DNA from: Promethearchaeota archaeon
GTDB taxonomy: Archaea; Asgardarchaeota; Lokiarchaeia; Sigyniarchaeales; SOKP01
DNA: 22,261 nucleotides
Direction: 5' to 3'
Assembly: GCA_016926735.1 (NCBI GenBank)
Contig: JAFGOA010000144.1
Coordinates: 1 to 22,261 of the forward strand
Part shown: positions 2,528 to 22,261 of the stretch, in pieces
Layout: the number at the start of each line of letters is the position of its first letter
How positions within the stretch are numbered: the stretch's first letter is position 1
Program-made: the position numbers and the translations under genes
The notes under the pieces: generated by a model
Told to the model about the DNA's origin: nothing
Seen by the model: the letters and a program-made list of their open reading frames with translations, nothing else
The model's database searches: none

Positions 2528-2534
2528 GAGGTGA
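2528..2534 (+). promoter_or_regulatory. Shine-Dalgarno site GAGGTGA upstream of ATG 2541
   Basis: GAGGTGA ends 6 nt before the start codon and matches the archaeal-type SD consensus. Confidence 0.6.
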
Positions 2535-2540
2535 AGAATT

Positions 2541-2780: not shown

Positions 2781-2806
2781 AAATAAATTTAAAGGAATTA
2801 ATCATT

Positions 2807-3952: not shown

Positions 3953-3974
3953 ATTTTAAATTATATTAAATTAA

Positions 3975-4517
3975 ATGATCTTTATGGAACATAAAGGATT
4001 TACATTATGGTTTACGGGGCTTGCATGCTCAGGTAAAACCGTTCTTGCTGATGCTGTTGCTAATGAATTAAAAAAGCTCGAAATGAAAGTAGAAAGACTA
4101 GATGGGGATATCGTTAGAAAAAATCTAACAAAAGATTTAGGATTTACTGAAGAAGATCGAAATAAAAATATAGAAAGAGTAACTTTCGTCGCAAAGTTAT
4201 TATCTAGGAATGGAGTTGCCGTTTTAGCATCTTTTATATCTCCATACAATCAGATAAGAGATTATTCTCGAAATGAAATTGAAAATTATATTTTAGTCTA
4301 TGTGAAATGCTCACTAAAAGTATGTGAAGAAAGGGATGTAAAAGGAATGTATGCCAAAGCTAGAGCTGGTGAGATTAATAATTTTACCGGAATTGATCAT
4401 CCTTTTGAAGAACCAAATAATCCAGATATAGTTGTTGAAACGGATAAACAATCTATAGAAGAAAGTAAGCAAATTATTCTGAATTCACTTTATAATATGG
4501 GTTTTCTCCCTCAATAG
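3975..4517 (+). CDS. cysC: Adenylylsulfate (APS) kinase
   Basis: LWFTGLACSGKT P-loop, LDGD, DLGF..EDR..N, FISPY, RDVKGMY.KA, FTGI..PFEEP. Alternative start at ATG 3984. Confidence 0.96.
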   Translation: MIFMEHKGFTLWFTGLACSGKTVLADAVANELKKLEMKVERLDGDIVRKNLTKDLGFTEEDRNKNIERVTFVAKLLSRNGVAVLASFISPYNQIRDYSRNEIENYILVYVKCSLKVCEERDVKGMYAKARAGEINNFTGIDHPFEEPNNPDIVVETDKQSIEESKQIILNSLYNMGFLPQ

Positions 4518-4532
4518 TGATAATATTATATT

Positions 4533-5474: not shown

Positions 5475-5479
5475 ATTTA

Positions 5480-6331
5480 TTAATCACCTTGAATTATTTC
5501 TATTTGTTTATTTATTTCCAAAACAGCAGATTCATATTCTTCTTTATTTGGTGGTTTACCATGATATCTTCGTGTATGCTCCATGAAAGAGACATCACTT
5601 CCTTTAATTAAATATGAAATAACAACAGTCGGTTTACGGAAAATTTTACAAGCATTTTTAAATCCATTAATTATTTCGTTGATATTTGACCCATCTATCT
5701 CTATTACTTCCCATCCAAATGCTTTCCATTTGTCAGCTAATGGCTCTAATGACATAACTTCTTCTGTGGAGCCATCACTTTGTATTCCATTTCTATCAAC
5801 AATTGCAATTAAATTATCTAATTTATAATGGCTTGCAGCCATAGCAGCTTCCCATACAACTCCTTCATTTAATTCACCATCTCCTAACAAGGTAAAAATT
5901 TTCTTGTTATTATTATTTAATTTTGCTGCTAATGCACATCCTATGCTTACAGAAAAGCCAATTCCTAAAGAACCAGTAGAAATCTCTATACCTAGATCTT
6001 TATTTTTTTTAGGGTGTCCTTGGAGTCTTGAACCAAAACTTCTAAGGGTATATAATTCTTTTTTTTCAATAAGTCCTATTTTAGATAATACAGCATATAA
6101 AGCTGGAGCCGCATGTCCTTTACTAAGGATAAAGATATCTCTATCTTCCATTAAAGGATTTTTAGCATCAAATTTCATCACTTTTTTATATAACAGATAA
6201 ATTAAATTAACACAAGATAATGATCCTCCCGGATGCCCAGATTGAGCTATCCAGATCATTTTCAAAATTTGTTTTTTGAGTTTTAAAATGTCTGTTAATA
6301 ATACCTTTTCTTCAATTGATGAGATTTGCAT
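5480..6331 (-). CDS. Transketolase, N-terminal (TPP-binding) subunit
   Basis: SGHPGGSLS, LSKGHAAPALY, LQGHP, STGSLG, TPP motif GDGE...DRN, HGKPP. Confidence 0.95.
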   Translation of the reverse strand: MQISSIEEKVLLTDILKLKKQILKMIWIAQSGHPGGSLSCVNLIYLLYKKVMKFDAKNPLMEDRDIFILSKGHAAPALYAVLSKIGLIEKKELYTLRSFGSRLQGHPKKNKDLGIEISTGSLGIGFSVSIGCALAAKLNNNNKKIFTLLGDGELNEGVVWEAAMAASHYKLDNLIAIVDRNGIQSDGSTEEVMSLEPLADKWKAFGWEVIEIDGSNINEIINGFKNACKIFRKPTVVISYLIKGSDVSFMEHTRRYHGKPPNKEEYESAVLEINKQIEIIQGD

Positions 6332-6337
6332 GGTTTT

Positions 6338-7321
6338 TTAATCTCTTGAAATATAATTTATAAGTTTTTCTTGATTAAAGAATTCAATAGGAGGTAAAGA
6401 AGCGGAATAGTTTGCGCCTTTAATAGCTAATTCTACAGCAATAGATGGAGATAATCCATTAGCATATGATAAACCTAAAATTGCCATAATAATACTTCCA
6501 ACAGTTACATAACTTCTAACAGGAGAACTTACTGATGAAGAATATATTTCAAAATTTTCTTTTGTATTTTGAAATAAGTAAGATTTTGATTCAATATGAT
6601 TTAATAAAACACTTTTAGTTTTTGTAGTATTGATAATTCTTTTTCCAACTATCGAAACACTAGTGTCATTACAGCATTCGATTGACAAAGCATTGAGTGC
6701 ATTTGGAAGATGTAATCTAATCATATCAATTCCTTCATATAAATAATAATTATTTATATTTGGACGTGCTATAATAGGTACTGAAAAATTATTTTTTATT
6801 TTATTTAGTAAATTATTGATAAAATTATCTTGAAATAAACCCCCGATTCCGTAATCCAATATCAATATAGAATCTAAATCAGAATCACGAGATAATATTT
6901 TCTCTAGTAATTTCTTATGTGTGGTATTGGGAATATTTTGATTATAATCTGTTTCTAATCGAAGAATATGCTGGTTCATAGCTTTAATTCTGGTGATTTG
7001 AGGTGTATTAATAGTATCATCAATTAAAATTCCAGAGGTCTCTATTGATAAATCGTGTAATTTTTTTAGAAAAAACTCACCTTCATAGTCATTTCCTATA
7101 ATAGTTGAGATTTCTGGAATTCCACCTAGAGATTTTATAAATTTTAAAACAAGACCAATTCCACCGAGGTATGTAATGGTTTCTTCTATTTTTACATTAG
7201 GAACTGGAGCATCAGGAGAAATTCTATCAGCTTGACCTGTTATATATTTATCTACTAAGGCTTCTCCAATAATTAAAACTTTTTTATTTTTCCAACTTTT
7301 TATATTTTCGATTATGTTCAT
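6338..7321 (-). CDS. HldE/RfaE kinase-domain-like (PfkB family) protein with degenerate catalytic motifs
   Basis: N-terminal HldE signature retained (LVDKYITGQADRISPDAPVP; later TR...NQHILRLE, LDY). The PfkB GAGD motif aligns to TVGS and the NxxE motif is absent. Confidence 0.8.
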   Translation of the reverse strand: MNIIENIKSWKNKKVLIIGEALVDKYITGQADRISPDAPVPNVKIEETITYLGGIGLVLKFIKSLGGIPEISTIIGNDYEGEFFLKKLHDLSIETSGILIDDTINTPQITRIKAMNQHILRLETDYNQNIPNTTHKKLLEKILSRDSDLDSILILDYGIGGLFQDNFINNLLNKIKNNFSVPIIARPNINNYYLYEGIDMIRLHLPNALNALSIECCNDTSVSIVGKRIINTTKTKSVLLNHIESKSYLFQNTKENFEIYSSSVSSPVRSYVTVGSIIMAILGLSYANGLSPSIAVELAIKGANYSASLPPIEFFNQEKLINYISRD

Positions 7322-7337
7322 TTTTGAGCAATTATTG

Positions 7338-7994
7338 TTATAGTTTTAATTGTTTTTGTAATTTTTCCCAATCATTCAGAAACGATTTTATTCCTTCTTC
7401 TGTTCTTGGGTGCTTAAACATTTTTTCTAAGACATCAAATGGAATTGTAGCAATATGTACTCCCATTTTAGCAGATTCAATTACATGTCTTGCGTTTCTA
7501 ATAGATGCTGCGATTATTTCAGACTTAAATTTGTATTTTTCAATAATTTGCATAGTCTCTTTAAGCATATCAATTTCATTTTGACCACTATCCATTAATC
7601 TTCCTATAAAAGGGCTGATATAAGAAGCACCTGCTTTTGCGGCTAATAATACTTGATTTTGGGAAAACACAAGAGTCACATTAGTTTTAATTCCTTCAGG
7701 TTCTAAAATTTTAACTGCTTTAATTCCTTCTTTAGTAAAAGGAATTTTTACAACAATATTAGAACCAATCTTTATTAGCTCTCTAGCTTCTTTAACCATT
7801 TCTTCCGTTGTCAAACCAATCACTTCGCCACTTACAGGACCTTTTACAATTTCACAAATTTTTTTTAGTTGTTCTATAGGTTCAGCACCTTCTTTTGCCA
7901 GAAGACTTGGATTTGTAGTGACTCCATCAAGAATCCCTAATTCTTGATATTCTTTTATTTGCTTTAAATTAGCAGTATCAATAAAAAATTTCAT
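7338..7994 (-). CDS. tal: Transaldolase (short TalC/FSA-fold type)
   Basis: [14 protein letters not shown], Schiff-base Lys in VVKIP, NVTLVFS, AASIR. Glu in SGEV and Phe in SPFIGR indicate transaldolase rather than fructose-6-phosphate aldolase. Confidence 0.93.
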
Positions 7995-8030
7995 ATAACA
8001 TCATTTAATTTTTTTTAATAATAATAATAT

Positions 8031-8585
8031 TCATTTGAATTTTATATTTTCGGCAAATTCTAATAGATTTTTATAGATATAATCTGGTTTAATTTCATTT
8101 AATTTCTTTTTTTCTTTAATTCCATGTCCTGTGAGAACCAATACTGTTTTACACCCAGCATTTTTTCCAGCTTTAATATCGTTTAATGTATCTCCTACTA
8201 TATAAGATTTTTTAAGATCAATATTATATTTTTCTTTTGCTTTAATTATCATCCCTGGATTAGGTTTTCTACATTCGCATATTCCGGTGAACATAGGATG
8301 ATGAGGACAAAAAAAGATATCATCAAGAAAAATCTTATTTTTTTTAAGAATTAAATTCATTTTTTTATGAATTTGATTAAGTCTAGCTTCTGAAAAATAA
8401 CCTCTAGCAATACCTGCTTGATTAGTGATCACAATTAAAAGATATCCCTTTTCTTTTAATATTTTAAGTGCATCTATTACTCCCTCTAATAAAACAAAAT
8501 CATCTGGATTAGATAAATAATTAATTTCTTTATTAATTACTCCATCTCTATCTAAAAAAATAGAATATCGCTTATCTTTCATCAT
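8031..8585 (-). CDS. gmhB: D-glycero-D-manno-heptose-1,7-bisphosphate phosphatase (HAD IIIA)
   Basis: FLDRDGVIN, ITNQAGI, Zn site CPHHP...CECRKP, VGD...D; clustered with gmhA and hddA. Confidence 0.92.
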   Translation of the reverse strand: MMKDKRYSIFLDRDGVINKEINYLSNPDDFVLLEGVIDALKILKEKGYLLIVITNQAGIARGYFSEARLNQIHKKMNLILKKNKIFLDDIFFCPHHPMFTGICECRKPNPGMIIKAKEKYNIDLKKSYIVGDTLNDIKAGKNAGCKTVLVLTGHGIKEKKKLNEIKPDYIYKNLLEFAENIKFK

Positions 8586-8588
8586 GCA

Positions 8589-9209
8589 TCAAGTTTTTAA
8601 TTGATTTATTACTTGGTTTGGATCTTCTGCTTTTAATATTGTACTTGAACTGCTTAAAATATCAGCTTTATCAAGTAGTTTACTATTATCCAAGTTAACA
8701 CCTCCATCAACATCAATTTTAAAATTGAACTTAGTTTTATATCTTGATAATTCGTTGACTTTATTGATTGTTTCGGGTATAAATTTTTGGCCTGACCAAC
8801 CAGGATTCACACCCATAATAAGAATAAAATGTATATCTTTTAAAAAAGGAATAACTTCAGATATAGGAGTTGAAGGATTGAGAACAATCCCAATTTCTTT
8901 ATTGTACTTTTTTATTTCATCTATAACTTTTTTTGTTGGATTTTCAGCTTCGATATGAAAAAAAAAAGCATCTATAAAATGAATTATTTTTTTAATATAA
9001 TTAAAAGGATCTATAACCATTAAATGAGCAAAAATTGGAATTTTAAAATTGGTTTTAAGGATTCTAAAAAGATCCAAATATAACATAGTATTATTTACAA
9101 AAATACCATCCATTACATCTACATGAATATAATCTAAATTTTTTAAGTTCTTTATTTGATCTATATTGGTATTTTCTAATGCATGGAGAGCTACAGCTAC
9201 TTTCTTCAT
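8589..9209 (-). CDS. rpe: Ribulose-phosphate 3-epimerase
   Basis: HVDVMDG.FV.N, HLMV, FHIE, LNPSTP, MGVNPGWSGQKF, VDGGVN. Confidence 0.93.
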   Translation of the reverse strand: MKKVAVALHALENTNIDQIKNLKNLDYIHVDVMDGIFVNNTMLYLDLFRILKTNFKIPIFAHLMVIDPFNYIKKIIHFIDAFFFHIEAENPTKKVIDEIKKYNKEIGIVLNPSTPISEVIPFLKDIHFILIMGVNPGWSGQKFIPETINKVNELSRYKTKFNFKIDVDGGVNLDNSKLLDKADILSSSSTILKAEDPNQVINQLKT

Positions 9210-9223
9210 ATTAAACTTTTTCC

Positions 9224-9790
9224 TTAACTAAACAACTCTTTTTCAACTAAATAACAAATTATATGACCTACAGTAATATGACCTTCTTGTATTCGAGGAG
9301 TATCCATAGAAGAAATCTTCAAGCAATAATCTGTGATTTTTTCTATATTATTTTCTTTCTTTCCAGTAAATCCAATAGTGATTGCACCCCTATTTTTCGC
9401 TTCTTCAAGACCTTTTATAACATTTGGTGAATTTCCAGAAGTACTAATACCAATAACAATATCTCCTTTATTAACAAGTGATGATACTTGTCTTTCAAAT
9501 ATTTTTTCATAACCAAAATCATTTGCGGTAGCAGTTATACTTGAAGTATTTGTACTTAAAGCTAAAGCAGGTAAAGAATCTCTATCCAAATAAAATTTTC
9601 CAACAAATTCAGTGGCAATATGTTGCGCATCAGCAGCACTTCCACCATTTCCAAATAGAACAACTTTATTATTTTTTTTATAGGCTTCTATAATCTTATT
9701 TGAAATATCAATAATTAATTGTACTTGATTTTTTAACTCTTCTTTAATTTTAATAGATTCATCTAATATAGAAATTATTTCATTTTGCAT
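9224..9790 (-). CDS. gmhA: Sedoheptulose-7-phosphate isomerase
   Basis: GNGGSAADAQH, ANDFGYE.IF.RQ, ISTSGNSPN, TPRIQEGH. Confidence 0.96.
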   Translation of the reverse strand: MQNEIISILDESIKIKEELKNQVQLIIDISNKIIEAYKKNNKVVLFGNGGSAADAQHIATEFVGKFYLDRDSLPALALSTNTSSITATANDFGYEKIFERQVSSLVNKGDIVIGISTSGNSPNVIKGLEEAKNRGAITIGFTGKKENNIEKITDYCLKISSMDTPRIQEGHITVGHIICYLVEKELFS

Positions 9791-9881
9791 AAAATCTTAT
9801 TCTCAGAAAAATTATTTAAAATTGATTTAAATAAATAAGGGTACAAAAAAAAGATAACTCCTTTTGTTATTAAGTTTTAGA

Positions 9882-10895
9882 CTAATTATCAACTTTCCAT
9901 ACTTCTATTCCATTAGGATTGAAATGAAAATTTATAATCTTTCCACCTATTTTTTCTAACTGTTTGATTACTTCAGATTTATGATTTGGATCAGAAAATA
10001 ACAATAGATGCCCACCACCTCCAGCACCTAGAAGTTTTCCTCCAATAACACCAAATCTTCTTGAGGTTATATAGAAGTTTTCAATCATTTTATTAGTAAT
10101 TTTACTACTTAAACTTTTTTTTACTAACCACCCTTCATGTAATAATCTGCCAAATTGTTGAATTTTACTTAGTTCATTTGATTCAATTATATCTTTCATA
10201 AAATATGCTACTTTCTTCAAATCCTTCATTGATTCTATAAATGATTTTTTTTCTATATTATATGCTTCTATAACCTCATCTTGAATATCTGAAGAAAAAT
10301 GCGATCCACCTACATAACATAAAATCATACAATATTGGAGTTCATTAATCATTTGAGTAGATGATTTTATTGGTTTTACTTTAACCTTATCTGTAAATTC
10401 AATAAAATTAAAGCCACCATAAGATGCTGCAAATTGATCTTGATATCCACCTTTTTGATTTAATTCAATTCTTTCAATATCACATGCTTTTTGCGCAATA
10501 TCATATTTATTGTATCCAAAATTATAAAATTCATTAAATGCACCAATTAGAGCCACAGCAAGTGAAGATGATCCTCCCATACCAGATCCAGGAGGTAATT
10601 CTGAATAAATTGTTAAATCAAATCCCTTATTGATTTCTAAATAATTTATTACACCTTTAATTACTTCAAATTTAGTTGTATAATCCTTATCTCCAATTTG
10701 AAAATTATATTTTTCATTTGAATTAATTGCATTGATATGAATATAATCATCTTCTCTTTGCTTGATTGATACATATATATGTCTATCAATTGTTGTACTT
10801 ATTACACATCCACCATGTTCCAAACAATATGGAGGCATATCAGTACCACCACCACCAAAACTAACTCTAAAAGGAGCTTTTGCGCGAACAATCAT
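9882..10895 (-). CDS. hddA: D-glycero-alpha-D-manno-heptose-7-phosphate kinase (GHMP family)
   Basis: APFRVSFGGGGTD, PPGSGMGGSS, GGYQDQFAA, GGKLLGAGGGG; next to gmhA. Confidence 0.88.
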   Translation of the reverse strand: MIVRAKAPFRVSFGGGGTDMPPYCLEHGGCVISTTIDRHIYVSIKQREDDYIHINAINSNEKYNFQIGDKDYTTKFEVIKGVINYLEINKGFDLTIYSELPPGSGMGGSSSLAVALIGAFNEFYNFGYNKYDIAQKACDIERIELNQKGGYQDQFAASYGGFNFIEFTDKVKVKPIKSSTQMINELQYCMILCYVGGSHFSSDIQDEVIEAYNIEKKSFIESMKDLKKVAYFMKDIIESNELSKIQQFGRLLHEGWLVKKSLSSKITNKMIENFYITSRRFGVIGGKLLGAGGGGHLLLFSDPNHKSEVIKQLEKIGGKIINFHFNPNGIEVWKVDN

Positions 10896-11050
10896 AATTT
10901 TCTTTTTCTTATATTTTTAAATCTTATTTATATAATTAATTGATTATTATAAATTTTCAAAATTTCATTCAACAATATCGTAAAATTAATGATGTAATAC
11001 TTATTATATCATTTGATTTAAAAAATAATACGATCAGAAAGAATTATTTT

Positions 11051-12097
11051 ATGACGAATGTAATAATAACAGGTTCTGATGGATTTTTGGGTTCACATTT
11101 GGTTGACTTTTTATTAGATAAAGGATATTTTATTTTTGCTTTTAAAAGACCTGATAGTTCAATACATAATTTATCTCATTATTTAAACAATTACAATAAA
11201 AATGCGAATATAGAGAGAATTTCTTTTATAAAAAATAAGATTGAAATTCCAACTATTGAAAAGCATTTAAAGATTCTTGAAGTAGATATAAATAATTCAA
11301 AATTAGTTAATGATTTAATTTTAGAAATTAAACCTGATTTAATATATCATTTTGCAGCCCAACCTTATGTTATTCCTTCTTGGAATGATCCCATAACAAC
11401 AATACAAACAAATATAATTGGAACGATTAATATTTTCGAACCTTTAAAGAAATACAATATTAAATGTCGAGTCATTGTTGCAGGTTCAAGTGCAGTTTAT
11501 GGAACAACAACTGATAAAATTAAAAGACCGTTAAAAGAATCCGATCCAATAGAAGCAGTTCATCCATATGGAATTAGTAAAATAGCCACAGAACTCCTTG
11601 CAAGACAATATTATCTAAATTTTAAGATTGATATCGTTAATTTGAGATTTTTTAATCAAACAGGACCTAGAAAAATAAATGATGCTTGTTCTGATTTTAT
11701 ACAAAAAATAGCCCAAATTGAATTAGGGTTGATTTCTCCTGTTGTTGAAGTTGGAAATTTAGAATCATATAGAGATATAATGGGCATACAAGATACTATT
11801 CAAGCTATTTGGTTAGCCACAGAAAAGGGGAGATCTGGAGAAACATATAATGTCTGTTCAAATAGGAAAATCTATATTAGAAAAGTATTAAATATATGTT
11901 TAAGTTTTTCATCAAAAAAGATTCAAATAATTGAGAATAAACCAGAAAAACTGAGAAAAACTGATGAAGATATTATTTTAGGAGATAATACAAAGATTGT
12001 TTCAGAATTACAATTTAAAATCCAACAATCTGTTGAGGAATTTCTCAAAGAATCTTTTGATTATTGGTTAAACTATTATAAAAATAAAGAAAAGTAA
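11051..12097 (+). CDS. GDP-sugar extended SDR (GMD/RMD family), probably a 4-keto-6-deoxy reductase
   Basis: ITGSDGFLGSHL, HFAAQPYVIPSW, GSSAVYG (Ala where GMD dehydratases have Glu), YGISK, FNQTGPR, GNLESYRD. ATG 11051 directly precedes the Rossmann strand and is preferred to the TTG at 10940. Confidence 0.8.
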   Translation: MTNVIITGSDGFLGSHLVDFLLDKGYFIFAFKRPDSSIHNLSHYLNNYNKNANIERISFIKNKIEIPTIEKHLKILEVDINNSKLVNDLILEIKPDLIYHFAAQPYVIPSWNDPITTIQTNIIGTINIFEPLKKYNIKCRVIVAGSSAVYGTTTDKIKRPLKESDPIEAVHPYGISKIATELLARQYYLNFKIDIVNLRFFNQTGPRKINDACSDFIQKIAQIELGLISPVVEVGNLESYRDIMGIQDTIQAIWLATEKGRSGETYNVCSNRKIYIRKVLNICLSFSSKKIQIIENKPEKLRKTDEDIILGDNTKIVSELQFKIQQSVEEFLKESFDYWLNYYKNKEK

Positions 12098-12110: not shown

Positions 12111-15100
12111 TTAATTTTTGTTATATGTAAAAGAAATTGTTCTTATATTGTTAATCTTCAACTCAGAATTACAATGTGGACATTTTATATTAGACTCCTT
12201 GTCTAATTTTTTTAAAATATTATCTTTTAATGAAGCAGAACAATCTTTATTACCACATAATTTTAATTCTTCATATATTTTTATTTTATCATTTTTAATA
12301 TTTGAATTATTGATAATAACTTCATTTGCAGATACTTTATCAGAGATATAATCTTTTGAATTTTCAATAAACTTAATTAAATAAGGGGCGTTTGCTCCAA
12401 TTTTAAGTGATATGTTCTCTCCCGCTTGAAATTTATTTATTTTTCTTGAAAACTGAATATTTCTAATAAGATCACTAATAATTCTCTCAGTTAAAATATC
12501 CTCATCAACAGTTTTATCCAAATAAATTATGCCATATTTTGAATCTGTTTTTACATAATCTTCATTAGATTTAAATGATTTTGTAATCTCTAACTCTTTT
12601 ACATTAACAGTTTTTTTAAAAATTATCTGGAATTCTTCTTCAGGTACTTTTTCTTCAGTTACAATAACAATCTTTTTGTTTGGCCATCTTAATCTAATCC
12701 GATATTCGTCTTTTAAAGCTCTTGCTTCTTCAATTAATTCTTGAATGAAAATCATTTGATTTTCTATATCCTCATCTATTAATTTTTCCTCTACTTTGGG
12801 CCAATCCTGCAAGTGAATACTCAGTGTTTCGTTTAGATTCATTGATTTCATATTGAGTTTAAACATTTTATGATATATTTCTTCAGTTAACATAGGATTA
12901 ATTGGAGATAATAGCAATAGAACTTTAAAAAGAACATCATAAAGTAATGATAGAACAGGATATTTCTCTGAATCATCAGAATATACTTCGATTTTATCTC
13001 GAATTAAAACTACATACCATCGACTGAGATCATTCACAATAAAATCTCTCAAAGTTTCGGTTATAGATGGAAGTATATATGTATCTGATAAATTTGTGAT
13101 TTTCTTAATAGTTGTATTTAATCTTGAAAGAAGCCATTTATCGGTTTTATCCATTTTCTTAATATCATACTTATGTTTGGAAGGATTAAAATTAGCTAAT
13201 CTACATTTTTCATTTGCATATACAAATAGATTCCAAATTGTATTTATTACTCTATAAGTATCTGCATATTCTTTTGCACTAAAATTCAAATCTCTACCTG
13301 GTTGAGTTGCGCCTATACAATAAAATCTAAAAGTTTCAATCCCTTTAATTTTAGAATATGATTTTTTTTTCTGTAAATCCTTTAAAGTACCATTTATTAG
13401 ATCTTCAGGTTCAATAAAATTACCAAGAGATTTACTCATTTTTTCACCTTCTCTCATCACCCAACCATGCATATAACATGCATCATAGTTCTTACGTTTA
13501 GAAGATACCATAGCACTACATAAAAGACTATTGAACCATCCTCTTATTTGATCTTTTCCTTCTAGTATAAAATCAGCGGGTATCCATGTGTCATAATGAC
13601 TTTCACCATCATATACTTCTTGAGCTGCCCAAACTACAGAACCAGAATCTAACCATACATCAAGAATATCTGGAATTCGGGTTTTTGTACCCTTTTTGCA
13701 TTTTTCACATTTCCATGTTATTTTATCAATCCAAGGCCTATGTAAATCTTCAGGACATTCCCCGGCTATTTTTTTTAGTTCTTTAGCCGATCCAATCACA
13801 GTTATATCTCCACATTTTTTATCATTACAAATCCACACACTGAGAGGAATACCCCAGAAGCGTTGACGGGATATGCACCAATCTTTTATAGAAGATAACC
13901 AACTTTTAAACCATTTCATTCCAGCCCATTCTGGAACCCAATATATTTTTTCATTTTGTCCTAATAATTCTTCACTTATAGACTCTGTTTTAAAAAACCA
14001 TTGTTTTGTAGCTCTATAGACTAGTTTTGATTTACATCTCCAACAATGAGCATATTCATGTTCAACTATGTCTGTGTCAATTAAAGTCCCTTTTTCTTTG
14101 AGAATCTCTATTATTTCTTTATTCGCATCAAATACAAATTGATTTTTAAATTTTCCAGCTTTTTCATTATAAAGTCCATCAATTTTAACAGGATTAAAAA
14201 TCGGCAATCCATTTTTTACACCTACATCAAAATCTTCAGGTCCGTGTCCTGGAGCAGTATGAACTAATCCAACACCTTCACCTGCAGAGACATATTCCTC
14301 GGATAAAAGGATTGAATGCATCTTTTCACTCTTTTTAGCAAGTTCTTTTTGATATGGAACTTCATCCAGTAAAGGATGAATATATTTCATACCTTCTAAG
14401 TCTTCTCCAATATAATCTCGATCGATCTTATATTTATAACCTAATTGACCAGAAATAAAGAATGTAATAGAATTTTTAGATAAAATCCAATATTCATCTA
14501 AATCCTTAATATATACTTTAGCATATTCTGCAATTGGATTAACCATTATTGCTGAATTTGCGACTAAAGTCCAAGGTGTAGTTGTCCAAATTATAAAAAA
14601 TGTCTTTTCATCTTCTGCTGATTCAAATTTAACAAAGATACTTGTATCTTTTACATTTAAATATTCATGTTCATGTTTTGCTAGAGCTGTTGCACAACGA
14701 GGACAACAATTTAATGGTCTATAGAATTGATATAATAAATCATTTTCCCATGCTCGTTTTAATGTCCACCATATTCCCTCAATATAACTATTTTTAAAAG
14801 TTATGTAAGGATTTTCCCAATTCCAAAAATATGAACCAAGTCTTTTAAATTGATCATTCATAATTTTAAGATTTCTTTGAGCAAATTCTTTGCAGTTTGT
14901 AATAAATTTATCGACACCATATTCCAAAATTTCTTGTTTATTTTTTATATTAAGTTCTTTTTCCATTTGAACTTCAATTGGTAGACCATGGGTATCATAA
15001 CCAGGAGTATCAGTGACTTTAAACCCTTGCATTCTTTTATACCTAATGAGATAATCTTTCAGAATTTTATTCCATGCGGTGCCTAAATGGATTGATCCTG

Positions 15101-15248
15101 TTGTATAAGGAGGTCCATCAATAAAGCGCCATATCTTATCTGGATTTTCTTTCGTTTTTATCATTGAATAAATGTCTTCATTTTCCCAAAATTCTAAGAT
15201 CCTTTCTTCTAATTTTAATAAATCTAGGTTTTTACTTATTGGTTCCAA
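12111..15248 (-). CDS. ileS: Isoleucine--tRNA ligase (archaeal/type II) with C-terminal Cys4 cluster
   Basis: DGPPYTTGSIHLGTAWN (HIGH region), DTHGLPIE, WTTTPWTL, GLVHTAPGHG, DWCISRQRFWG, GKDQIRGWF, KMSKS. TTG start. Confidence 0.97.
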   Translation of the reverse strand: MEPISKNLDLLKLEERILEFWENEDIYSMIKTKENPDKIWRFIDGPPYTTGSIHLGTAWNKILKDYLIRYKRMQGFKVTDTPGYDTHGLPIEVQMEKELNIKNKQEILEYGVDKFITNCKEFAQRNLKIMNDQFKRLGSYFWNWENPYITFKNSYIEGIWWTLKRAWENDLLYQFYRPLNCCPRCATALAKHEHEYLNVKDTSIFVKFESAEDEKTFFIIWTTTPWTLVANSAIMVNPIAEYAKVYIKDLDEYWILSKNSITFFISGQLGYKYKIDRDYIGEDLEGMKYIHPLLDEVPYQKELAKKSEKMHSILLSEEYVSAGEGVGLVHTAPGHGPEDFDVGVKNGLPIFNPVKIDGLYNEKAGKFKNQFVFDANKEIIEILKEKGTLIDTDIVEHEYAHCWRCKSKLVYRATKQWFFKTESISEELLGQNEKIYWVPEWAGMKWFKSWLSSIKDWCISRQRFWGIPLSVWICNDKKCGDITVIGSAKELKKIAGECPEDLHRPWIDKITWKCEKCKKGTKTRIPDILDVWLDSGSVVWAAQEVYDGESHYDTWIPADFILEGKDQIRGWFNSLLCSAMVSSKRKNYDACYMHGWVMREGEKMSKSLGNFIEPEDLINGTLKDLQKKKSYSKIKGIETFRFYCIGATQPGRDLNFSAKEYADTYRVINTIWNLFVYANEKCRLANFNPSKHKYDIKKMDKTDKWLLSRLNTTIKKITNLSDTYILPSITETLRDFIVNDLSRWYVVLIRDKIEVYSDDSEKYPVLSLLYDVLFKVLLLLSPINPMLTEEIYHKMFKLNMKSMNLNETLSIHLQDWPKVEEKLIDEDIENQMIFIQELIEEARALKDEYRIRLRWPNKKIVIVTEEKVPEEEFQIIFKKTVNVKELEITKSFKSNEDYVKTDSKYGIIYLDKTVDEDILTERIISDLIRNIQFSRKINKFQAGENISLKIGANAPYLIKFIENSKDYISDKVSANEVIINNSNIKNDKIKIYEELKLCGNKDCSASLKDNILKKLDKESNIKCPHCNSELKINNIRTISFTYNKN

Positions 15249-15378: not shown

Positions 15379-17043
15379 TTAATAAAAGGAAGGAGGAGGT
15401 GATTTTAGACAAAATCCACATTTTCCAAATGATTTTATCGTCTGTTCCCAACAATGTTTATGATAAGGGCGTTCACAATAAGGACATTCGATATAACATG
15501 AATCCCCTTCAGTTTCAGCAATTCTAATATTACATGAAGGACATTCTATTTTATGACATATAACACAAGCAACAACAGAAACTTCAAATATTTTTTTGGA
15601 AATTAAATTAAATAGATCAACCAAATAATGATTCGGACTCCAATCATTATAAAAATCCTTAAAAGAAACATTCAGATCATTTTTTATTTTCTCGTGAGTT
15701 TCCAAATCAAATTCATTTACAACAATTATTTTCGGTATCATCAACGGATATTCTTTAGGGAGTTCAATTTTAAATTCAAAAGTTAAATCCTCTGACTTCA
15801 TCTTTCCTTTCATATCTACGTAGATTGTATTGCTAAGAACATCATAATTGATATTTTGATAGTGTTCTCTTAGTAAATCTATTTCAAAGTTAATACGAGA
15901 ATGTTTATCAATTAACCATGATATCTCTCTTAAAACACCAATTGTTTCAGAGGAATTCTCAATCCAATTCTTAACTGAATCTAATTCATTGATTGGTCTC
16001 CAAATAATATCTTGCAATTCTTGGTCTAATTCAATAATCGGTAATTTAGGAAATGGTTCTAGATCAATTTTTAGAAAATATTCCTTAAAGCCATATGTTA
16101 ATAGTTTTACTTGTAATTTACTTATACTTCCATAAATCATCTTATATTGGTATTCTTGAGCTATTATATTTACTTCTGCTTCAATCTTTTTAATTGAATA
16201 TAGTTTTTTCTCCAATTCATGGAGAATATCAATTATATGAGGTGGATTTTTTTTTTTCCAATTTTTTAATGTCTCCAATGTTTGATTTGGATCTTGAAAA
16301 AGTGATTTTATTTCGGTTGGAAGTATTAGATGAGGTTTATTAGGATAATTTGAAAAATTAATATTTATTATAAACGTTTTAGTTAAAGTAATTGTAAGAT
16401 AAACAATAATATTAGCTATTCCTTCTTCTTTGTGGTCAAAGGCAAATTCTTGCTGGATTAATCCTAATTCTGTATTAATTTTCAAAGAATCTATATCCGA
16501 ATCTGCAAATAATCCTTCAGAGCTAGTAATTATATTATTGGGTATATTATTATTTTTATTTTCAATTTCAGGATTGGGAGTTTCTTGTATAATCTCATTT
16601 TGATTATCAATAAAGAAGTTATTATTGGTATAGGAAGGGGTTAAATATTGTTCTGACTCAAAATCAGAAGGATATAAATCCATATTGGGTGTGATATATT
16701 TATCTTGTTCAAGATTATCTGATTCAACATGAGAAGTATTAAGTTTTTGCTCTATTTTTAATTTTAATTCATCAACAATTTCAATGACTTTCATATTTTC
16801 ATACCAGTTAAGTATTGTATCTAAAGTGATATCACCAAGCAAGAGTCGAACTTTTTCATGAAATATAAATTCAGGAGGATTAGTTGGAAAATCAGAACCA
16901 AATTTTATTTCAAGTTCATATTGTTCTTCTCCTGATTTGTAAACATAACCATATAAATGAGATATATCTCCAGAAACCATCCAAAATGAATATTTTGAAG
17001 CAATTATTTGTGCTTCTTTTAAGATTCTTTGTTTATCCATCAA
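15379..17043 (-). CDS. Tandem UEV/RWD-like (UBC-fold) repeat protein with C-terminal C4HC3-type RING finger; putative E3 ligase
   Basis: Four ~100-aa repeats, each with [FY]PxxxP-like and late-Trp motifs (FPTNPP/NW, YPNKP/NW, FPKLP/NW, YPLMIP/DWSP). No Cys before residue 493, then CVIC-CPSC-C-CPYC-HKHC-W-CGFC. Confidence 0.75.
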   Translation of the reverse strand: MMDKQRILKEAQIIASKYSFWMVSGDISHLYGYVYKSGEEQYELEIKFGSDFPTNPPEFIFHEKVRLLLGDITLDTILNWYENMKVIEIVDELKLKIEQKLNTSHVESDNLEQDKYITPNMDLYPSDFESEQYLTPSYTNNNFFIDNQNEIIQETPNPEIENKNNNIPNNIITSSEGLFADSDIDSLKINTELGLIQQEFAFDHKEEGIANIIVYLTITLTKTFIININFSNYPNKPHLILPTEIKSLFQDPNQTLETLKNWKKKNPPHIIDILHELEKKLYSIKKIEAEVNIIAQEYQYKMIYGSISKLQVKLLTYGFKEYFLKIDLEPFPKLPIIELDQELQDIIWRPINELDSVKNWIENSSETIGVLREISWLIDKHSRINFEIDLLREHYQNINYDVLSNTIYVDMKGKMKSEDLTFEFKIELPKEYPLMIPKIIVVNEFDLETHEKIKNDLNVSFKDFYNDWSPNHYLVDLFNLISKKIFEVSVVACVICHKIECPSCNIRIAETEGDSCYIECPYCERPYHKHCWEQTIKSFGKCGFCLKSPPPSFY

Positions 17044-17338: not shown

Positions 17339-17521
17339 GATATTGAACTAATAGAGAAGTATAAGACATATATAGGTAAACGAATCAAACGAGGTTTATT
17401 TTAATTGATTAAAGAGATTAAAATCAATGCGGACGTAAATCCTGCAATGAATATCCTAAAAAAAGTAGTTCCCACAACCTTTGATGGTAAGGGAATAGAG
17501 GCGATGGTGTTATCGCCATGA
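17339..17521 (+). pseudogene. tnpB: 3' remnant of IS200/IS605-family tnpB (NADVN-type)
   Basis: One frame reads DIELIEKYKTYIGKRIKRGLF*LIKEIKINADVNPAMNILKKVVPTTFDGKGIEAMVLSP*, with an internal TAA at 17402. GKRIKRGLF and INADVN.A.NI are characteristic TnpB C-terminal motifs. A weaker KIKYKYE trace lies near 17305-17326. Confidence 0.85.
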
Positions 17522-17868: not shown

Positions 17869-19047
17869 ATGGTTGATAAGAATATTCTAATGTTGTCTTC
17901 AGCGGAATATAAAGCAAGTTCAAGATTTACTAGGAGTGCTCAAATGTTCTCAGAAAAGGGGAATAATGTAGAGATATTATGCTGTGATAGATTATATAAT
18001 AATCCTAAAAGAGAAAAACTTGATAAAATTAATATTAGATTTGTCCGATCATTTCTTTCAAAAAAAAAATTAAATGTCCTAACAATGCCTTTCTTTTTAT
18101 TATATTTATATCTAAAATATTTAATTAAAACAATAAAGAAACCAAAGATAGACATTATTTATTCATATACTCTTGATTTATTACCAATTTCAATTCTTTT
18201 GAAAAAAATAAAAAAATCTAAATTAATCTATGATTCTGCTGAGTATTATCCTGGAATGATCATAAATTATGTTCCTAAATTTATATATTATATGGTAAGA
18301 GCTATATATTACAAACTTGCAAAAAAAGCAGATTATGTTATTACGACAAATAAATTGTTGGAATATCAATTTAAACTAGCTAAAGTTAAAAAAGTCAAAA
18401 TAATAGCAAACGTTCCAGATACTAATATTTTCTTTTTTAACGAGAATAATAGAAATAAAATAAGAAATGATTTAAAAATTCCAAATAATACCATTGTATT
18501 TTCTTTTATAGGGTTTATGGCTGAATTTCGTGGGCTTGAAGAAATGGTTCAAGCCAGTAAGATTTTAAGTAAAGAAAATAATAATTTTAAAATCTTAATT
18601 ATAGGTAAAGGTCCAAAAAAACAAGAAATAATGAGGAGAATTGAAGTAAATGGTTTAAAGGAATTTTTTATAATTAAAGATTTTATCGAGTTAAATTCCG
18701 TTCCACAATATTTGAGTGCTTCTGATGTTGTATTTATCTTATATAATCCAGATAAATTAAATAATTGGTATGGTGTCCCAAATAAGCTTTTTGAGGCAAT
18801 GGCTTGTGAGAGAGCTGTAATTGGAAGTAATTTTGGAAATTTAAAAAATTTAATTAATGATATAAAATGTGGACTTCTTGTAGATATGAAGAATCCAAAA
18901 GATATTGCTGATAAAATGAAAATTATTTTAGAAGATGGTGCTCTTAGAACTAAATTAGGAAAAAATGGTTATAATCGTACTATTAATGAATATAATCTAA
19001 AATATAATACAAATACACTAAATAAAGTTATTGAAGAATTGAATTAA
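17869..19047 (+). CDS. Glycosyltransferase family 4 (GT-B)
   Basis: LIYDSAEYYP, FIGFMAEFRGLE, IIGKGP, PNKLFEAMACERAVIGSN, GLLVD. Confidence 0.92.
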   Translation: MVDKNILMLSSAEYKASSRFTRSAQMFSEKGNNVEILCCDRLYNNPKREKLDKINIRFVRSFLSKKKLNVLTMPFFLLYLYLKYLIKTIKKPKIDIIYSYTLDLLPISILLKKIKKSKLIYDSAEYYPGMIINYVPKFIYYMVRAIYYKLAKKADYVITTNKLLEYQFKLAKVKKVKIIANVPDTNIFFFNENNRNKIRNDLKIPNNTIVFSFIGFMAEFRGLEEMVQASKILSKENNNFKILIIGKGPKKQEIMRRIEVNGLKEFFIIKDFIELNSVPQYLSASDVVFILYNPDKLNNWYGVPNKLFEAMACERAVIGSNFGNLKNLINDIKCGLLVDMKNPKDIADKMKIILEDGALRTKLGKNGYNRTINEYNLKYNTNTLNKVIEELN

Positions 19048-19056
19048 TTATTTTAT

Positions 19057-19218
19057 GCCACTATAAATACTTTAAGAAAAGTAGTTCCTACAGCCTTCGA
19101 TGGTAAAGGAATAGAATCGATGGTGTTATCACCATGAATTGTTATAATTTGTTGATCGTAACTCAATTATATATAAATCTTAATAGCACTTTATAGGTTA
19201 TACTGGTTCTAATAACAT
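19057..19218 (+). mobile_element. Direct repeat copy 2: shorter tnpB 3'-end/right-end remnant
   Basis: Reads ATINTLRKVVPTAFDGKGIESMVLSP* (stop 19135-19137) and matches copy 1 at constant offset 1616. Starts 9 bp after the GT4 stop. Hairpin ATGGTG-TTAT-CACCAT at 19120-19135. Confidence 0.85.
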
Positions 19219-19307
19219 AAGTTATAATGGTTTTAATAACATGAAATATATGAATATGTATGAAGTATTATCAACTTCGTCAATCATTATTTATTATTAA
19301 ATAAATT

Positions 19308-20624
19308 ATGTTTAAATTAAATAACTTTTTTAAATTAAAGATCTCAAAGGATTTTCTAATATATCTTATTGGAAATATTACTTTTGCTGGAATCAATATT
19401 CTCTGTACCAGTATGATTGCTCGGTATTTAAGTCCAAGCCATTTTGGAGAATTTTCATTGATATATAGAATAATTCAGATCATAATTATAATATCAGATA
19501 TCGGATTGGGGCAAAGTTTGATAAAATTCGCATCTGAATTTAATTCAAAAAAAGAATTTGATAAAGTTGATGATCTTATAAATTACACTTTTAGACTTCG
19601 GTTTTTTGTCTCTCTATTTATTTGTATAATAGGTCTTCTTTTTTCAAGTACATTATCAAAATATTTATTAAAAAATGAAGCTCTTTTAATTCCACTAATG
19701 ATTGCTTTTATGGGGGGAATTGGATTTTCAATTTTCGAATTTCAGAAATCAGTATTACTATTTAAACAACAATTCAATAAAATACCAATATTAATTAACA
19801 TTCAAATTATATCGATTTTTATTCTCCTCGCTTTATTATCAATAAATTCTGAATTAAATCTACTAAACTCAATTATAATATACAATATAATTCCTATATT
19901 AGTTGTTTTTCTTGGTTTTTTTTTAATTAAATTTAAGTTTAATCTTTTTAAAAAATCCGAATTTAATTATAAAAAAATACTAAAATTTAGTTTCTATTTG
20001 AATATTTCAAATATATTATTGATATTACTGAATCGAACTGATATTTTTTATTTAAATTTCTTTTTTGATGTAGAGATAACAGGAATTTATTCAGCAGCAT
20101 TAAATATGGCAGCTTTTTTGAATGTATTAATAAGTACAATTACATTTTTTATACTGCCAAAGGTTTCTGAATTATTAGATATGAAGGAAATAAAAAAAGC
20201 TTTTAAAATAATTTTAAAATATTCAACTTTACTATATATAATAACAGTTATACCCACAGTATTTTTATCTGACCATATTATTCTATTATTTTTTGGTTCA
20301 AGTTATGACCGTTCAATCCTTATATTTCGAATATTGATTATATCTATTGGTTTAGGCTTGATTACAACTCCGGCAAATACATTAATACTAAAATTCAACA
20401 AACCATATATCTATACTATAATGATTGTATCACAATTGTTAATTTTTCTAATAGGAACCCCTATATTCTTTAACTTCTTTGGTTATATTGGTTTTGCTTA
20501 TATTACATTTATATTTAATTTATTTGGTCTAATATACGTTATTAGTTATTTATTATTATACTTTAGAAAAAAGAGAAAGGAACTCATATTAACCGAACCA
20601 AATGATAATCTGATAAATGATTAA
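19308..20624 (+). CDS. Oligosaccharide flippase (Wzx/MOP superfamily)
   Basis: Polytopic hydrophobic protein with ARYLSPSHFGEFSL, DIGL...LIKF, NRTD, TGIYSAA, ILPKVS; lies between glycosyltransferase genes. Confidence 0.9.
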   Translation: MFKLNNFFKLKISKDFLIYLIGNITFAGINILCTSMIARYLSPSHFGEFSLIYRIIQIIIIISDIGLGQSLIKFASEFNSKKEFDKVDDLINYTFRLRFFVSLFICIIGLLFSSTLSKYLLKNEALLIPLMIAFMGGIGFSIFEFQKSVLLFKQQFNKIPILINIQIISIFILLALLSINSELNLLNSIIIYNIIPILVVFLGFFLIKFKFNLFKKSEFNYKKILKFSFYLNISNILLILLNRTDIFYLNFFFDVEITGIYSAALNMAAFLNVLISTITFFILPKVSELLDMKEIKKAFKIILKYSTLLYIITVIPTVFLSDHIILLFFGSSYDRSILIFRILIISIGLGLITTPANTLILKFNKPYIYTIMIVSQLLIFLIGTPIFFNFFGYIGFAYITFIFNLFGLIYVISYLLLYFRKKRKELILTEPNDNLIND

Positions 20625-20821
20625 ATTAAATTTATTTAAAATTTATTTATATTTACCAATATTTTTAATCTAAGGAAGAAATCTTAATAATTATTAACTG
20701 TGATAAATTATTCAAATATATTAATCCATAATAAATATTAAAAGTAATTTTTAGAAGAATTAAAGAGATATTTTATATTATAAAAATAATAAATAATCAT
20801 TTATTATTACGATATTAAACA

Positions 20822-21664
20822 ATGGATAAGAGCCAACCTTTTATAACTGTTTTTACACCAAACTTTAATAAATCGGAGTTTATTTTAGAAACCATTCAAA
20901 GTATTCTAAATCAAACATATACTAATTTCGAATATATTATTATTGATGATTGCTCAACAGATGAAAGCTGGAATATAATTCAAAATCAAGCTAAAAAAGA
21001 TAATAGAATAAAATGTTATAGAAATAAGATTAATTTAAGAATAGTGGAAACAAGAAATAGAGGATTTCGATATAGCTCTCCAGATGCAAAATATTTTTCT
21101 ATCATTGACAGCGATGACGTTGCAGATAAAAAAAGATTAGAATATCAAATTAATTTTCTTGAGAAAAATAAAGACTATGGAATGGTTGGATCTAATGCAA
21201 TAATTATCAATGAAAAATCAAAAATAGTCGGATATCGAAATTATCCTTCAGAAAATGAAAAAATAAAAAAAATTATCGCTCGAATTAATCCTTTTACTCA
21301 ATCTAGTGTAACTCTTAGAAAAAAAGTAATTAAAGAGATAGGATTATATAATAAAAAATGGTTTGTATGTCAAGATTATGATTATTGGTTAAGAGTAGGA
21401 ATTAAATGGAAATTAAAAAATCTAAATAAACCACTTATTAGATACCGATTAAACACAAATCAAGTGAAAAATAAATTTCTCAAAGAGACTTTATTACATA
21501 CTTTAGAAATTCAAAAAAAAGCAATCTTATTATATGGATATAAAGATTCATTATATTCAAAAATAAATAGAATATTTCTAAAGTTATTAATTTCATTTCC
21601 AAGATTGTCTTTAATTATTTATAAAATCATCATCAGGTATTTTTCGAAAATTTTAAAATTATAA
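20822..21664 (+). CDS. Glycosyltransferase family 2 (GT-A)
   Basis: ITVFTPNFN, SILNQTY.NFE, IIDDCSTD, RNRG, DSDD, QDYDYWLR. Confidence 0.93.
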   Translation: MDKSQPFITVFTPNFNKSEFILETIQSILNQTYTNFEYIIIDDCSTDESWNIIQNQAKKDNRIKCYRNKINLRIVETRNRGFRYSSPDAKYFSIIDSDDVADKKRLEYQINFLEKNKDYGMVGSNAIIINEKSKIVGYRNYPSENEKIKKIIARINPFTQSSVTLRKKVIKEIGLYNKKWFVCQDYDYWLRVGIKWKLKNLNKPLIRYRLNTNQVKNKFLKETLLHTLEIQKKAILLYGYKDSLYSKINRIFLKLLISFPRLSLIIYKIIIRYFSKILKL

Positions 21665-21870: not shown

Positions 21871-22060
21871 AGTTTTATTTAATTAATTAAGTGAACTACC
21901 CCGTCTTAAATGACGTAGCTTCCTACGAGTGCACAATCGCTTCTACTACGGACTGGCCTGTATATCGTAGAAAACCCTTCCATTGATCTAAGAAGGATTC
22001 CTCGTTCACAGAGGGTTGATGCGATAGGAAATCATACTTCTTTTCTTTTTTACGTAAAAG
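21871..22060 (-). ncRNA. Predicted TnpB omegaRNA (reRNA); 5' limit approximate, guide from flank 21871-21890
   Basis: Inferred from the established TnpB arrangement (scaffold overlaps the tnpB 3' end and right end). Expression not shown. Confidence 0.5.
21891..21922 (-). mobile_element. IS200/IS605-family right end (subterminal hairpin, ends TCAC)
   Basis: Minus strand after the tnpB TAG reads GAAGCTACGTCATTTAAGACGGGGTAGTTCAC, with stem CGTC-ATTTAA-GACG and terminal GTAGTTCAC. Composition drops abruptly to AT-only flank beyond 21891. Confidence 0.85.
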
Positions 22061-22261
22061 AAATTTGACCATAATATTGATTGCTGAATTGAGATCTCGG
22101 TCAATATGATTTCCACAAGCGCAAATAATAACTCGTTCATGAATAGAACGTTTTTTTTTCTTCCGCATTGACAACAGACTTGGGTTGTAGCTGATTCATC
22201 AATTTTTATTACTCTTTTACCTATTTTTTCTGCTTTATAGGTTAAAAATTGTATAAATCGA
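21923..22261 (-). pseudogene. tnpB: tnpB C-terminal part (Zn finger + RuvC-III), 5'-truncated by the window, frameshifted at an A9 run
   Basis: Frame from 22260: RFIQFLTYKAEKIGKRVIKIDESATTQVCCQCGRKK. Homology continues in the -1 frame: RSIHERVIICACGNHIDRDLNSAINIM. The switch is at T9 22151-22159 on the plus strand. Confidence 0.88.

Follow-up and report, generated by a model that had tools for sequence, protein, structure and literature searches.

This study concerns a protein-coding gene on contig JAFGOA010000144.1 of the Promethearchaeota archaeon genome GCA_016926735.1 (Lokiarchaeia; Sigyniarchaeales; SOKP01), of which positions 1-22,261, the whole stretch that was analyzed, are called the window. 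The open reading frame 15379-17043 on the minus strand was confirmed; it encodes 554 amino acids (aa) if translation starts at the TTG at 17043, and 553 aa if it starts at the ATG at 17040, which is the start of the motif M-D-K-x-R in the consensus of the aligned homologues. Residue numbers count from this ATG and are one lower than in the initial annotation, which had been made from the sequence alone and had proposed a FANCL-like ubiquitin ligase (E3) with four dead UBC-fold repeats and a C4HC3 RING. The four repeats are non-catalytic UBC/UEV/RWD folds, the protein belongs to a conserved Lokiarchaeial family, and it is probably a substrate-recruiting single-chain RING E3 of the Lokiarchaeial ubiquitin system. 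The features of the locus are compiled in Table 1.

Table 1. Gene, protein domains and conserved neighbor in the window.
Feature	Position	Strand	Basis or remark
Gene for the 553-aa protein of four dead UBC/RWD repeats and a RING	15379..17040	-	In-frame TTG at 17043
Repeat 1, aa 1-103, most E2-like	16732..17040	-	VIA and HHalign
Acidic Asn/Glu-rich disordered linker, aa 104-182, variable length	16495..16731	-	pLDDT <50
Repeat 2, aa 183-281, position of the FANCL ELF domain	16198..16494	-	Models, HHalign, VIA
Repeat 3, aa 282-378	15907..16197	-	Models; helix 366-391 runs into repeat 4
Repeat 4, aa 379-488, RWD/UEV-like	15577..15906	-	VIA to Tsg101 UEV and RWDD1
RING, ligands C492 C495 C500 C503 C515 C519 C522 H527 H529 C530 C541 C544	15403..15576	-	Pattern and RBX1 alignment
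ileS, isoleucyl-tRNA synthetase, conserved downstream neighbor	12111..15248	-	Pfam tRNA-synt_1, E 6e-109

The four UBC-fold repeats were borne out by AlphaFold, by VIA Z-scores of 10-12 to ubiquitin-conjugating enzyme (E2), UEV and RWD structures, by HHalign and by Pfam. In the AlphaFold model (92 sequences) each of the four copies consists of a helix, a three-strand meander, a PxxxP strand and helices; the predicted local distance difference test (pLDDT) is about 90 for repeats 1-3 and lower for repeat 4, the linker is disordered at aa 104-181, and the RING is modelled weakly. When aa 183-553 were modelled separately, from 37 diverse sequences, the pLDDT was 86, with 65-87 in the RING. HHalign comparisons of family sub-alignments connected repeat 1 with repeats 2, 3 and 4 (97, 96 and 87%), repeat 2 with repeat 3 (98%), and repeats 1 and 4 with Asgard E2s (96 and 78%), with linker controls below 4%; no significant direct match was obtained for repeats 2 and 3 with repeat 4 or with E2s. 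The Pfam families UQ_con (E 1e-8) and RWD (E 9e-5) match the window protein above their cut-offs, and at E<=0.1 they match 32 and 36 of 37 diverse members, respectively.

Repeats 1 and 4 superpose on E2, UEV and RWD structures with Z-scores of 10-12.5 and root-mean-square deviations (rmsd) of 2.3-3.0, for example repeat 1 on the E2 2h2y (VIA Z 11.1, rmsd 2.3, 101 aligned residues) and repeat 4 on the UEV domain of Tsg101 (VIA Z 12.5, rmsd 2.6, 108 aa) and on RWDD1 (Z 11.1). Repeat 2 (model 181-281) matches Cdc34/UBE2R2 (VIA Z 8.5), and repeat 3 has structure matches only inside two-domain alignments. Repeats 3 and 4 share one continuous helix and form a double-RWD-like unit, which superposes better on the double RWD of Knl1 (Z 9.7, rmsd 3.8, 177 aa) than on the central domain of FANCL (Z 10.2, rmsd 6.8, 176 aa), the Z-scores being tied. 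The hairpin of repeat 1 (F19, W20, M21, S23, G24, H28, L29 and G31) is invariant, and a short motif within the linker (aa 115-126, window 16663-16698) is kept in 106 of 121 homologues.

The repeats are regarded as dead E2 folds because the HPN motif is absent and Cys is nearly absent around the catalytic offset. HPN was found in none of the 121 family members in any repeat, and the catalytic-Cys region is free of Cys in 116-121 of the 121, depending on the repeat, with a Cys near the site in 0-3 of them. The catalytic position of repeat 1 is Thr72, which is Gln in most homologues; in repeat 4 the YPxxxP motif is intact (Y431-P436) and a helix takes the place of the HPN loop. The repeats had been described as Cys-less, and this holds for the window copy, in which the first Cys is residue 492, and for the catalytic sites, but not for the whole family, since a Cys occupies position 299, within the first strand of repeat 3, in 86 of the 121 homologues. 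Active E2 chemistry of the repeats was rejected on the counts for HPN and for Cys near the site. An E2-E3 fusion that carries ubiquitin on a Ser or Cys of one repeat is extremely improbable: Ser459, which occupies the catalytic-Cys offset of repeat 4 in all 121 members, would be a candidate, as would Cys299, but Ser459 lies in a region modelled as helix and is replaced by Ala or Met in the E1-linked relatives, while Cys299 is part of strand 1 and is missing from the window copy.

The domain of repeat 2 is also present in other Lokiarchaeial proteins, many of the matches being single repeats. A 219-aa protein encoded elsewhere in the genome (G000:C31:803-1459, minus strand) combines a dead UBC domain resembling repeat 2 with a fused JAMM-like domain, whose H-S-H motif was identified by eye, and similar frames of 220-240 aa were found in many genomes of the window's family. 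P0191 and P0290 (614 aa) contain about five or more tandem UBC-like repeats, and P0191 ends in a degenerate RING-like part.

The order of an eight-ligand C4HC3 core, as proposed initially, is present in the RING, but the cluster comprises twelve ligands, ten Cys together with H527 and H529, and is probably a three-zinc RING with non-canonical E2-contact residues. Of the 121 family members, 119 show the strict twelve-ligand pattern, as do 31 of the 37 diverse relatives, and none of 20,000 tail shuffles does. The core has C4HC3 spacing, and C492/C495, C519/C522, H527/C530 and C541/C544 are invariant. The four additional ligands, C500, C503, C515 and H529, align with the insertion in RBX1 (profile E 0.013), and this alignment indicates that they probably form a third zinc site as in RBX1. 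Two-zinc relatives lose one CxxC pair, the equivalent of C515 and H529 together; this joint loss therefore supports a separate third site. The assignment of the inserted CxxC is ambiguous: the RBX1 alignment and the invariant I494 put the core at 492/495, whereas BLAST and MAFFT place the CxxC pair of the two-zinc relatives on 500/503. The RING is the most conserved part of the protein (0.82). I494, at the hydrophobic E2-contact position of loop 1, is invariant and F543 is present. The position of the helix Trp was taken from PMC3166285. A complex prediction with the RING (aa 470-553), an E2 of the same genome (encoded on contig C108, see below) and three zincs scored 0.29 against a mark of 0.32 and gave no answer either way. 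The same twelve-ligand RING is also grafted onto proteins with hydrophobic N-termini (L041; P0209, P0229, P0235, P0237, P0247 and others), some of which carry long repeat-rich regions and resemble receptor-like membrane E3s.

A search for homologues yielded 322 at E<=0.001 among 8,000 scored candidates. The 120 that were listed are 51-93% identical, and the named ones all carry Asgard labels, mostly Lokiarchaeota or Promethearchaeota, in agreement with an Asgard (Lokiarchaeial) origin of the protein. One relative is labelled Thermoplasmata (label unverified), and some family members are entered in public records as "ubiquitin-protein ligase" or "E2 variant". With a profile of seven rows, matches at E<=1e-12 were obtained in 116 of 400 genomes of the phylum, in a scan that scored five candidates per genome and in which some matches are single-repeat paralogues. 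These matches comprise 92 of 134 genomes of the window's own family, 17 of 26 of the class's other families, and six of six of one further family labelled Jordarchaeia, with no match elsewhere among the 400 genomes. The four-repeat form, that is, the form with repeat 1, was seen in the window's own order only; the other families of the class have three repeats and a RING, often as several paralogues. In a quick tree of 48 prokaryotic rows, from which five two-repeat Jordarchaeal rows were left out, the window protein falls within a 20-row clade of its own order (SH-aLRT 92). Among the representative matches (at least 150 listed of 363 at E<=0.001), no FANCL or BRE was present in the 21 that were inspected and the 18 that were scanned with Pfam; one of these matches is a tandem active E2. 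The family copy of genome G326 (L184) is frameshifted in repeat 3.

That the protein is an E3 of a ubiquitin-type system, as had been proposed, is supported, and ubiquitin operons of relatives add evidence that the initial annotation did not have. Three-repeat relatives, which are 351-367 aa long, lie directly upstream of and co-oriented with a ubiquitin-activating enzyme (E1) gene in four of six members of one clade (L038, L070, L073 and L077), and the order at L073 is gene-E1-E2-JAB. On the metagenome contig L137 a gene for such a relative, P0171 (351 aa, three repeats, two-zinc C4HC3 RING, 27% identical to aa 191-544, E 3e-37), heads a run of ubiquitin, E1, E2, JAB and two RING genes. Two-repeat RING proteins of Jordarchaeia abut E1 and E2 (L034-L036, L086); these loci stem from four genomes of one genus and are not independent. 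When P0171 and P0182 were used as queries of the genome-collection scans, no relative was found.

Related dead UBC repeats also occur in other contexts. Zinc-ribbon proteins with two to three such repeats and no RING were found at L050:4141-4938 and L051:3681-4466, between E2 and ubiquitin-like protein (Ubl)/E1 genes, and as P0186, P0189, P0190 and P0293. Members of one group of three-repeat paralogues are followed, in five of five loci (L039, L040, L071, L072 and L075), by a co-oriented gene whose 356-382-aa product contains a zinc ribbon as well as two RING-like clusters and may be a partner E3. At L084 a paralogue adjoins a JAB-RING gene.

The window holds no E1, E2, ubiquitin or JAB gene, and the presence of ubiquitin, E1, E2 and JAB in this genome was confirmed on other contigs. 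The genome is 99% complete; contig C237 carries a Ubl-E1-E2-JAB operon, C108 another E1 and E2, and C100 a ubiquitin, and there are six JAB matches. The operon partners of the relatives resemble the dispersed set. The E2 of the L073 operon shares 67% identity with the C108 E2 versus 43% with the C237 E2. For the operon E1s of the class the identities are 59-62% with the C108 E1, over its N-terminal part, versus 38-42% with the C237 E1, and the L137 ubiquitin matches only that of C100. The bit score of the best single segment favors the C237 E1, because the match to the C108 E1 is split. Compared by sequence, the operon partners thus seem to point to the C108/C100 set. The C108 type of E2, with HPN and Cys retained, is present in 133 of 161 genomes of the class. 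The C108 E2 gene (L001:1423-1929) has no ATG; an apparent ATT start follows GGTGA at the position of the orthologues' Met, and a frameshift was ruled out, the gene being intact with this start.

The C108 E1 gene (G000:C108:8300-10150, L147; L178-L180) contains a 30-nt insert with stop codons in the glycine-rich motif in all four genomes of the genus; the insert is absent from three other genomes inspected. It has bulge-helix-bulge geometry, with a central helix of 4/4 pairs in three genomes and 3/4 in one, an inner stem of 8-9/9 with two-sided changes, and a weak outer stem. On this geometry the insert is probably an mRNA intron, and this E1 works only if it is spliced, because the insert contains stops. 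Three RNA runs of the same study had nothing that mapped to the E1 locus. E2 orthologues of seven other Lokiarchaeial genomes (L139-L145) contain ten inserts of about 30-39 nt in all, which occupy five or six sites (three inserts in L143, two in L144); nine of the ten form a 4/4 central helix when the best of several trial registers is taken, without a shuffle control. This suggests that mRNA introns are frequent in ubiquitin-system genes.

The mechanism that we propose for a substrate-recruiting RING E3 is as follows. The RING would dock a charged E2, most likely of the C108 type and supplied by the C108 E1 with the C100 ubiquitin-like protein, and would promote the transfer of ubiquitin to a Lys of the substrate. 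Repeats 3 and 4 together with repeat 2 would form the substrate-binding arm via their invariant β-hairpin tips, like the double RWD of FANCL. Repeat 1, on its long acidic tether and added in the window's order, may be a non-covalent binding site for ubiquitin or a partner. The surface is highly conserved, which suggests that there is a single, conserved partner complex. The ancestral form would have been three repeats and a RING at the head of a ubiquitin operon, which in the window's order may have been dispersed, the gene settling beside ileS.

Several observations weigh against this reading. No E1, E2 or JAB was found beside the four-repeat loci (30 loci at 1.5 kb, 12 at wider flanks); therefore, the operon evidence for the window protein is indirect. 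In the quick tree, the four-repeat clade stands in an open fork with the six-row clade of E1-linked three-repeat relatives (SH-aLRT 98) and longer-branched paralogues. The probable cognate E1 has two in-frame stops in four of four genomes of the genus. The RING was modelled only inside longer chains, at the pLDDT given above, and is covered only by whole-chain rows of FANCL and Ltn1. Lastly, Thr534, Gly542 and Leu545 replace the helix Trp, the Pro and the linchpin Arg in 119 of 119 matching members; active RINGs without the helix Trp exist, e.g., Cnot4 (PMC3166285, accessible text).

The missing Trp, Pro and Arg would also fit a scaffold or ubiquitin-binding adaptor resembling BRE/BABAM2, which would hold a JAMM deubiquitinase or another RING, its own RING being structural or inactive like that of BARD1. 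BRE is found at Foldseek ranks 2-3 (E 3e-7 to 7e-7), a repeat of this family is joined to a JAMM-like domain in the protein encoded on C31, a paralogue lies beside the JAB-RING gene, and P0186, P0189 and P0190 are three-repeat relatives without a RING. However, we consider a scaffold unlikely, given that the RING is the most conserved part of the protein, that the relatives P0122, P0124 and P0125 have the canonical Trp or C-P-x-C, and that the linkage is to E1 and E2 and not to JAB alone. In addition, unrelated membrane proteins carry the same RING together with its invariant surface, which suggests an autonomous module.

The initial annotation had suggested a search for a conserved link to ileS, and such a link was found: 18 of the 30 best loci, among them the window's own, have ileS immediately downstream in the same orientation, and ileS is also near the gene in two other families of the window's order. 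This link is among the evidence for an E3 of translation quality control, similar to Ltn1/listerin or RNF25, that tags stalled nascent chains or ribosomal proteins, a reading that is compatible with the proposed substrate-recruiting E3 and specifies its substrate. Repeat 4 and the RING superpose on Ltn1 (Z 8.8, rmsd 8.8, 151 aa; Foldseek E 4e-5), listerin rows in the Atlas score 0.84-0.86, a probable Helarchaeal relative is tabulated as LTN1-like in the accessible part of the PMC12962969 supplement, and a gene of the NFACT/Rqc2 family is present in five of five genomes. Nevertheless, it seems rather unlikely that this is the role of the protein. An HEAT-repeat body of the Ltn1 type is missing, the ileS linkage is confined to one order and may be hitch-hiking, and Atlas scores below 0.9 are leads only. 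NFACT was also matched in 11 of 14 control genomes and is therefore not discriminating.

The gene and ileS are embedded in a cluster for sugar-nucleotide, heptose, sulfate-activation and glycosyltransferase functions (window 1136-12097 and 17869-21664), the genes of which were mostly named from their translations, with Pfam backing for a GHMP kinase and one glycosyltransferase; similar cluster neighbors recur beside the gene in relatives. An apparent, stop-interrupted tnpB remnant (window 17376-17520, plus strand) was read by eye against the C-terminal motif of TnpB. A second apparent remnant (window 21923-22174, minus strand) matches Pfam Cas12f1-like_TNB with E 3e-5, below the cut-off. In two relatives ileS is split (L049:7992-11135, L017:2211-3325). 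A promoter scan, the motif of which is bacterial in type, was at chance level (14 versus 22.6 in shuffles).

No paper describing this architecture was found in the literature; the asCOG tables of Liu et al., which lay outside the coverage, may annotate the family, and the text of the Liu et al. preprint contains neither RING nor RWD as a word. In the accessible part of supplementary file 3 of PMC12962969, rows 835, 837, 1026, 1206 and 2493 list Asgard signature proteins with structural hits to LTN1 or BRE. These Helarchaeal, Lokiarchaeal and Jordarchaeal rows give ranges of 176-361 to LTN1 and of 2-303 and 1-276 to BRE, and they probably represent three-repeat relatives of the family, matched by ranges and taxa and not by sequence. 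The accessible rows hold no comment on FANCL, RWD, an operon or three zincs, the main text of that paper has no FANC or RWD word, and its readable supplements have no FANCL or RWD word. Asgard UBCs without catalytic function and a single RWD-like sequence from Asgard archaea have been described, and a radiation of RWD proteins during eukaryogenesis, starting from an archaeal dead E2, has been proposed (PMC6601020, accessible text). The Asgard rows that were inspected in the alignment file of that paper are single domains, none of them recognized as a member of the family, and the accessible part of PMC13734099 has no FANCL or RWD entry.

The initial comparison with FANCL is upheld for the architecture and the ranking of the whole-chain fold, but not for orthology. 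FANCL (7kzp, 3k1l, 3zqs) also has tandem Cys-less UBC folds and a C-terminal RING with C4HC3 core order, and its size is that of the three-repeat relatives. Its layout of three UBC-like domains followed by a RING is found in aa 183-553 and in the three-repeat relatives, while the two-zinc C4HC3 RING with helix Trp is absent from the window protein and present in the Jordarchaeal P0122. In FANCL the ELF domain binds ubiquitin, the double RWD binds the substrate and the RING binds the E2 (PMC4543658, accessible text). In Foldseek, FANCL is the top match of both models (E 2.5e-7 and 2.4e-9, 7kzp_L), before BRE, Ltn1, CENP-O and Knl1, and aa 190-553 align with it end to end (VIA Z 9.5, 308 aa, rmsd 26). 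However, TM-scores are only 0.27-0.31, such a ranking rewards any chain of UBC folds with a RING, and when single domains are compared, UEV, RWD and E2 structures reach scores equal to or above those of FANCL. A sequence search of the PDB with a broad profile has E2s at the top (E 3e-6); FANCL is absent from its best 60 of 343 matches and from the best 60 of 159 for P0171. Orthology is unproven because single repeats are as near or nearer to E2, UEV and RWD proteins and no FANCL Pfam cut-off is reached: no FANCL family was listed for the window protein, FANCL_C (22.3 versus 27.3 bits for P0122) and FANCL_d1 (13.7 versus 23.8 for P0123) stay below, and none of the FANCL profiles exceeds its cut-off in five genomes. 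At E<=0.1, FANCL_C and FANCL_d2 match five and two of 37 diverse members, respectively. In the Atlas, FANCL is a lead only for aa 183-553 (0.88, 156 features) and comes first for the two-zinc P0171 (0.92, 184 shared features), level with a Lokiarchaeial cluster, the structural TM-score being 0.29.

A functional equivalent of FANCL in DNA cross-link repair, monoubiquitinating a DNA clamp, would be in line with the top whole-chain match, the first Atlas rank of P0171 and the FANCL_C matches. We regard this as very improbable, as the TM-scores are low, the FANCL Pfam profiles stayed below their cut-offs wherever bit scores were given, no gene of DNA repair was seen next to any locus, and the FancD2 and FANCI_S1 profiles gave nothing in five genomes, although the control genomes were silent too and there was no positive control.

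Irrespective of a repair function, it is conceivable, if rather doubtful, that FANCL has its archaeal sister or its source in this family. A three-repeat E3 with RING at the head of an archaeal ubiquitin operon, as on L137, would then be the forerunner of FANCL and possibly of further proteins with tandem RWDs (BRE, the Ltn1 tail, kinetochore double RWDs), and Lokiarchaeia would have added the RBX1-like third zinc and the fourth repeat. If this ancestry is true, substrate-recruiting multidomain E3s predate eukaryotes. The origins of FANCL, of tandem RWDs and of the three-zinc RING become directly testable, and the E1, E2 and ubiquitin partners together with the compact operon version offer a reconstitutable model of pre-eukaryotic substrate-specific ubiquitylation. 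In comparison with FANCL, the window protein has an extra N-terminal repeat, an acidic linker and four more zinc ligands and lacks the helix Trp; in addition, the predicted domain packing differs, as the TM-scores indicate, and the family's relatives are encoded in E1/E2 operons.

Several other systems share parts of this architecture. BRE/BABAM2 of the BRCA1-A and BRISC complexes (6gvw, 6h3c) has tandem UEV/RWD-type domains as well (Foldseek E 3e-7), and Pfam BRE matches four of 37 diverse members at E<=0.1; BRE has no RING and scaffolds a deubiquitinase. In Ltn1/listerin (8aaf, 9gy4; Z 8.6-8.8, rmsd 8.5-8.8) the RWD domain is likewise followed directly by the RING, but Ltn1 has a long HEAT body, whereas the N-terminal part of the window protein consists of further UBC repeats. 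The 553 aa are all accounted for by repeats, linker and RING, and neither an N-terminal domain nor a HEAT body of the Ltn1 type is present.

The RINGs of RBX1 and RBX2 (C6H3C2D) also have twelve ligands, an inserted CxxC-x11-C and H-x-H-C, and RBX1 is the best PDB RING match of the four-repeat family profile, with the E-value given above. Its third zinc site is formed by three Cys and one His (PMC5462531, accessible text). In contrast, the family RING has Cys as the fourth and eighth core ligands and no cullin-binding strand, a Cullin profile had no match at E<=1 in the 99% complete genome, where remote homologues could escape, and with the broad profile Pirh2 and Arkadia RINGs outscore RBX1 among the best 60 of 343 PDB matches. 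The RBX1 likeness may be convergent. A reconstituted, operon-encoded archaeal RING E3 cascade is that of Caldiarchaeum subterraneum with ubiquitin, E1, E2, srfp and Rpn11 (PMC5654768, accessible text). The characterized archaeal RING E3 is a small protein without a substrate arm, and the tandem dead-E2 E3 contrasts with it by the putative substrate arm of 300-490 aa that is carried by this family.

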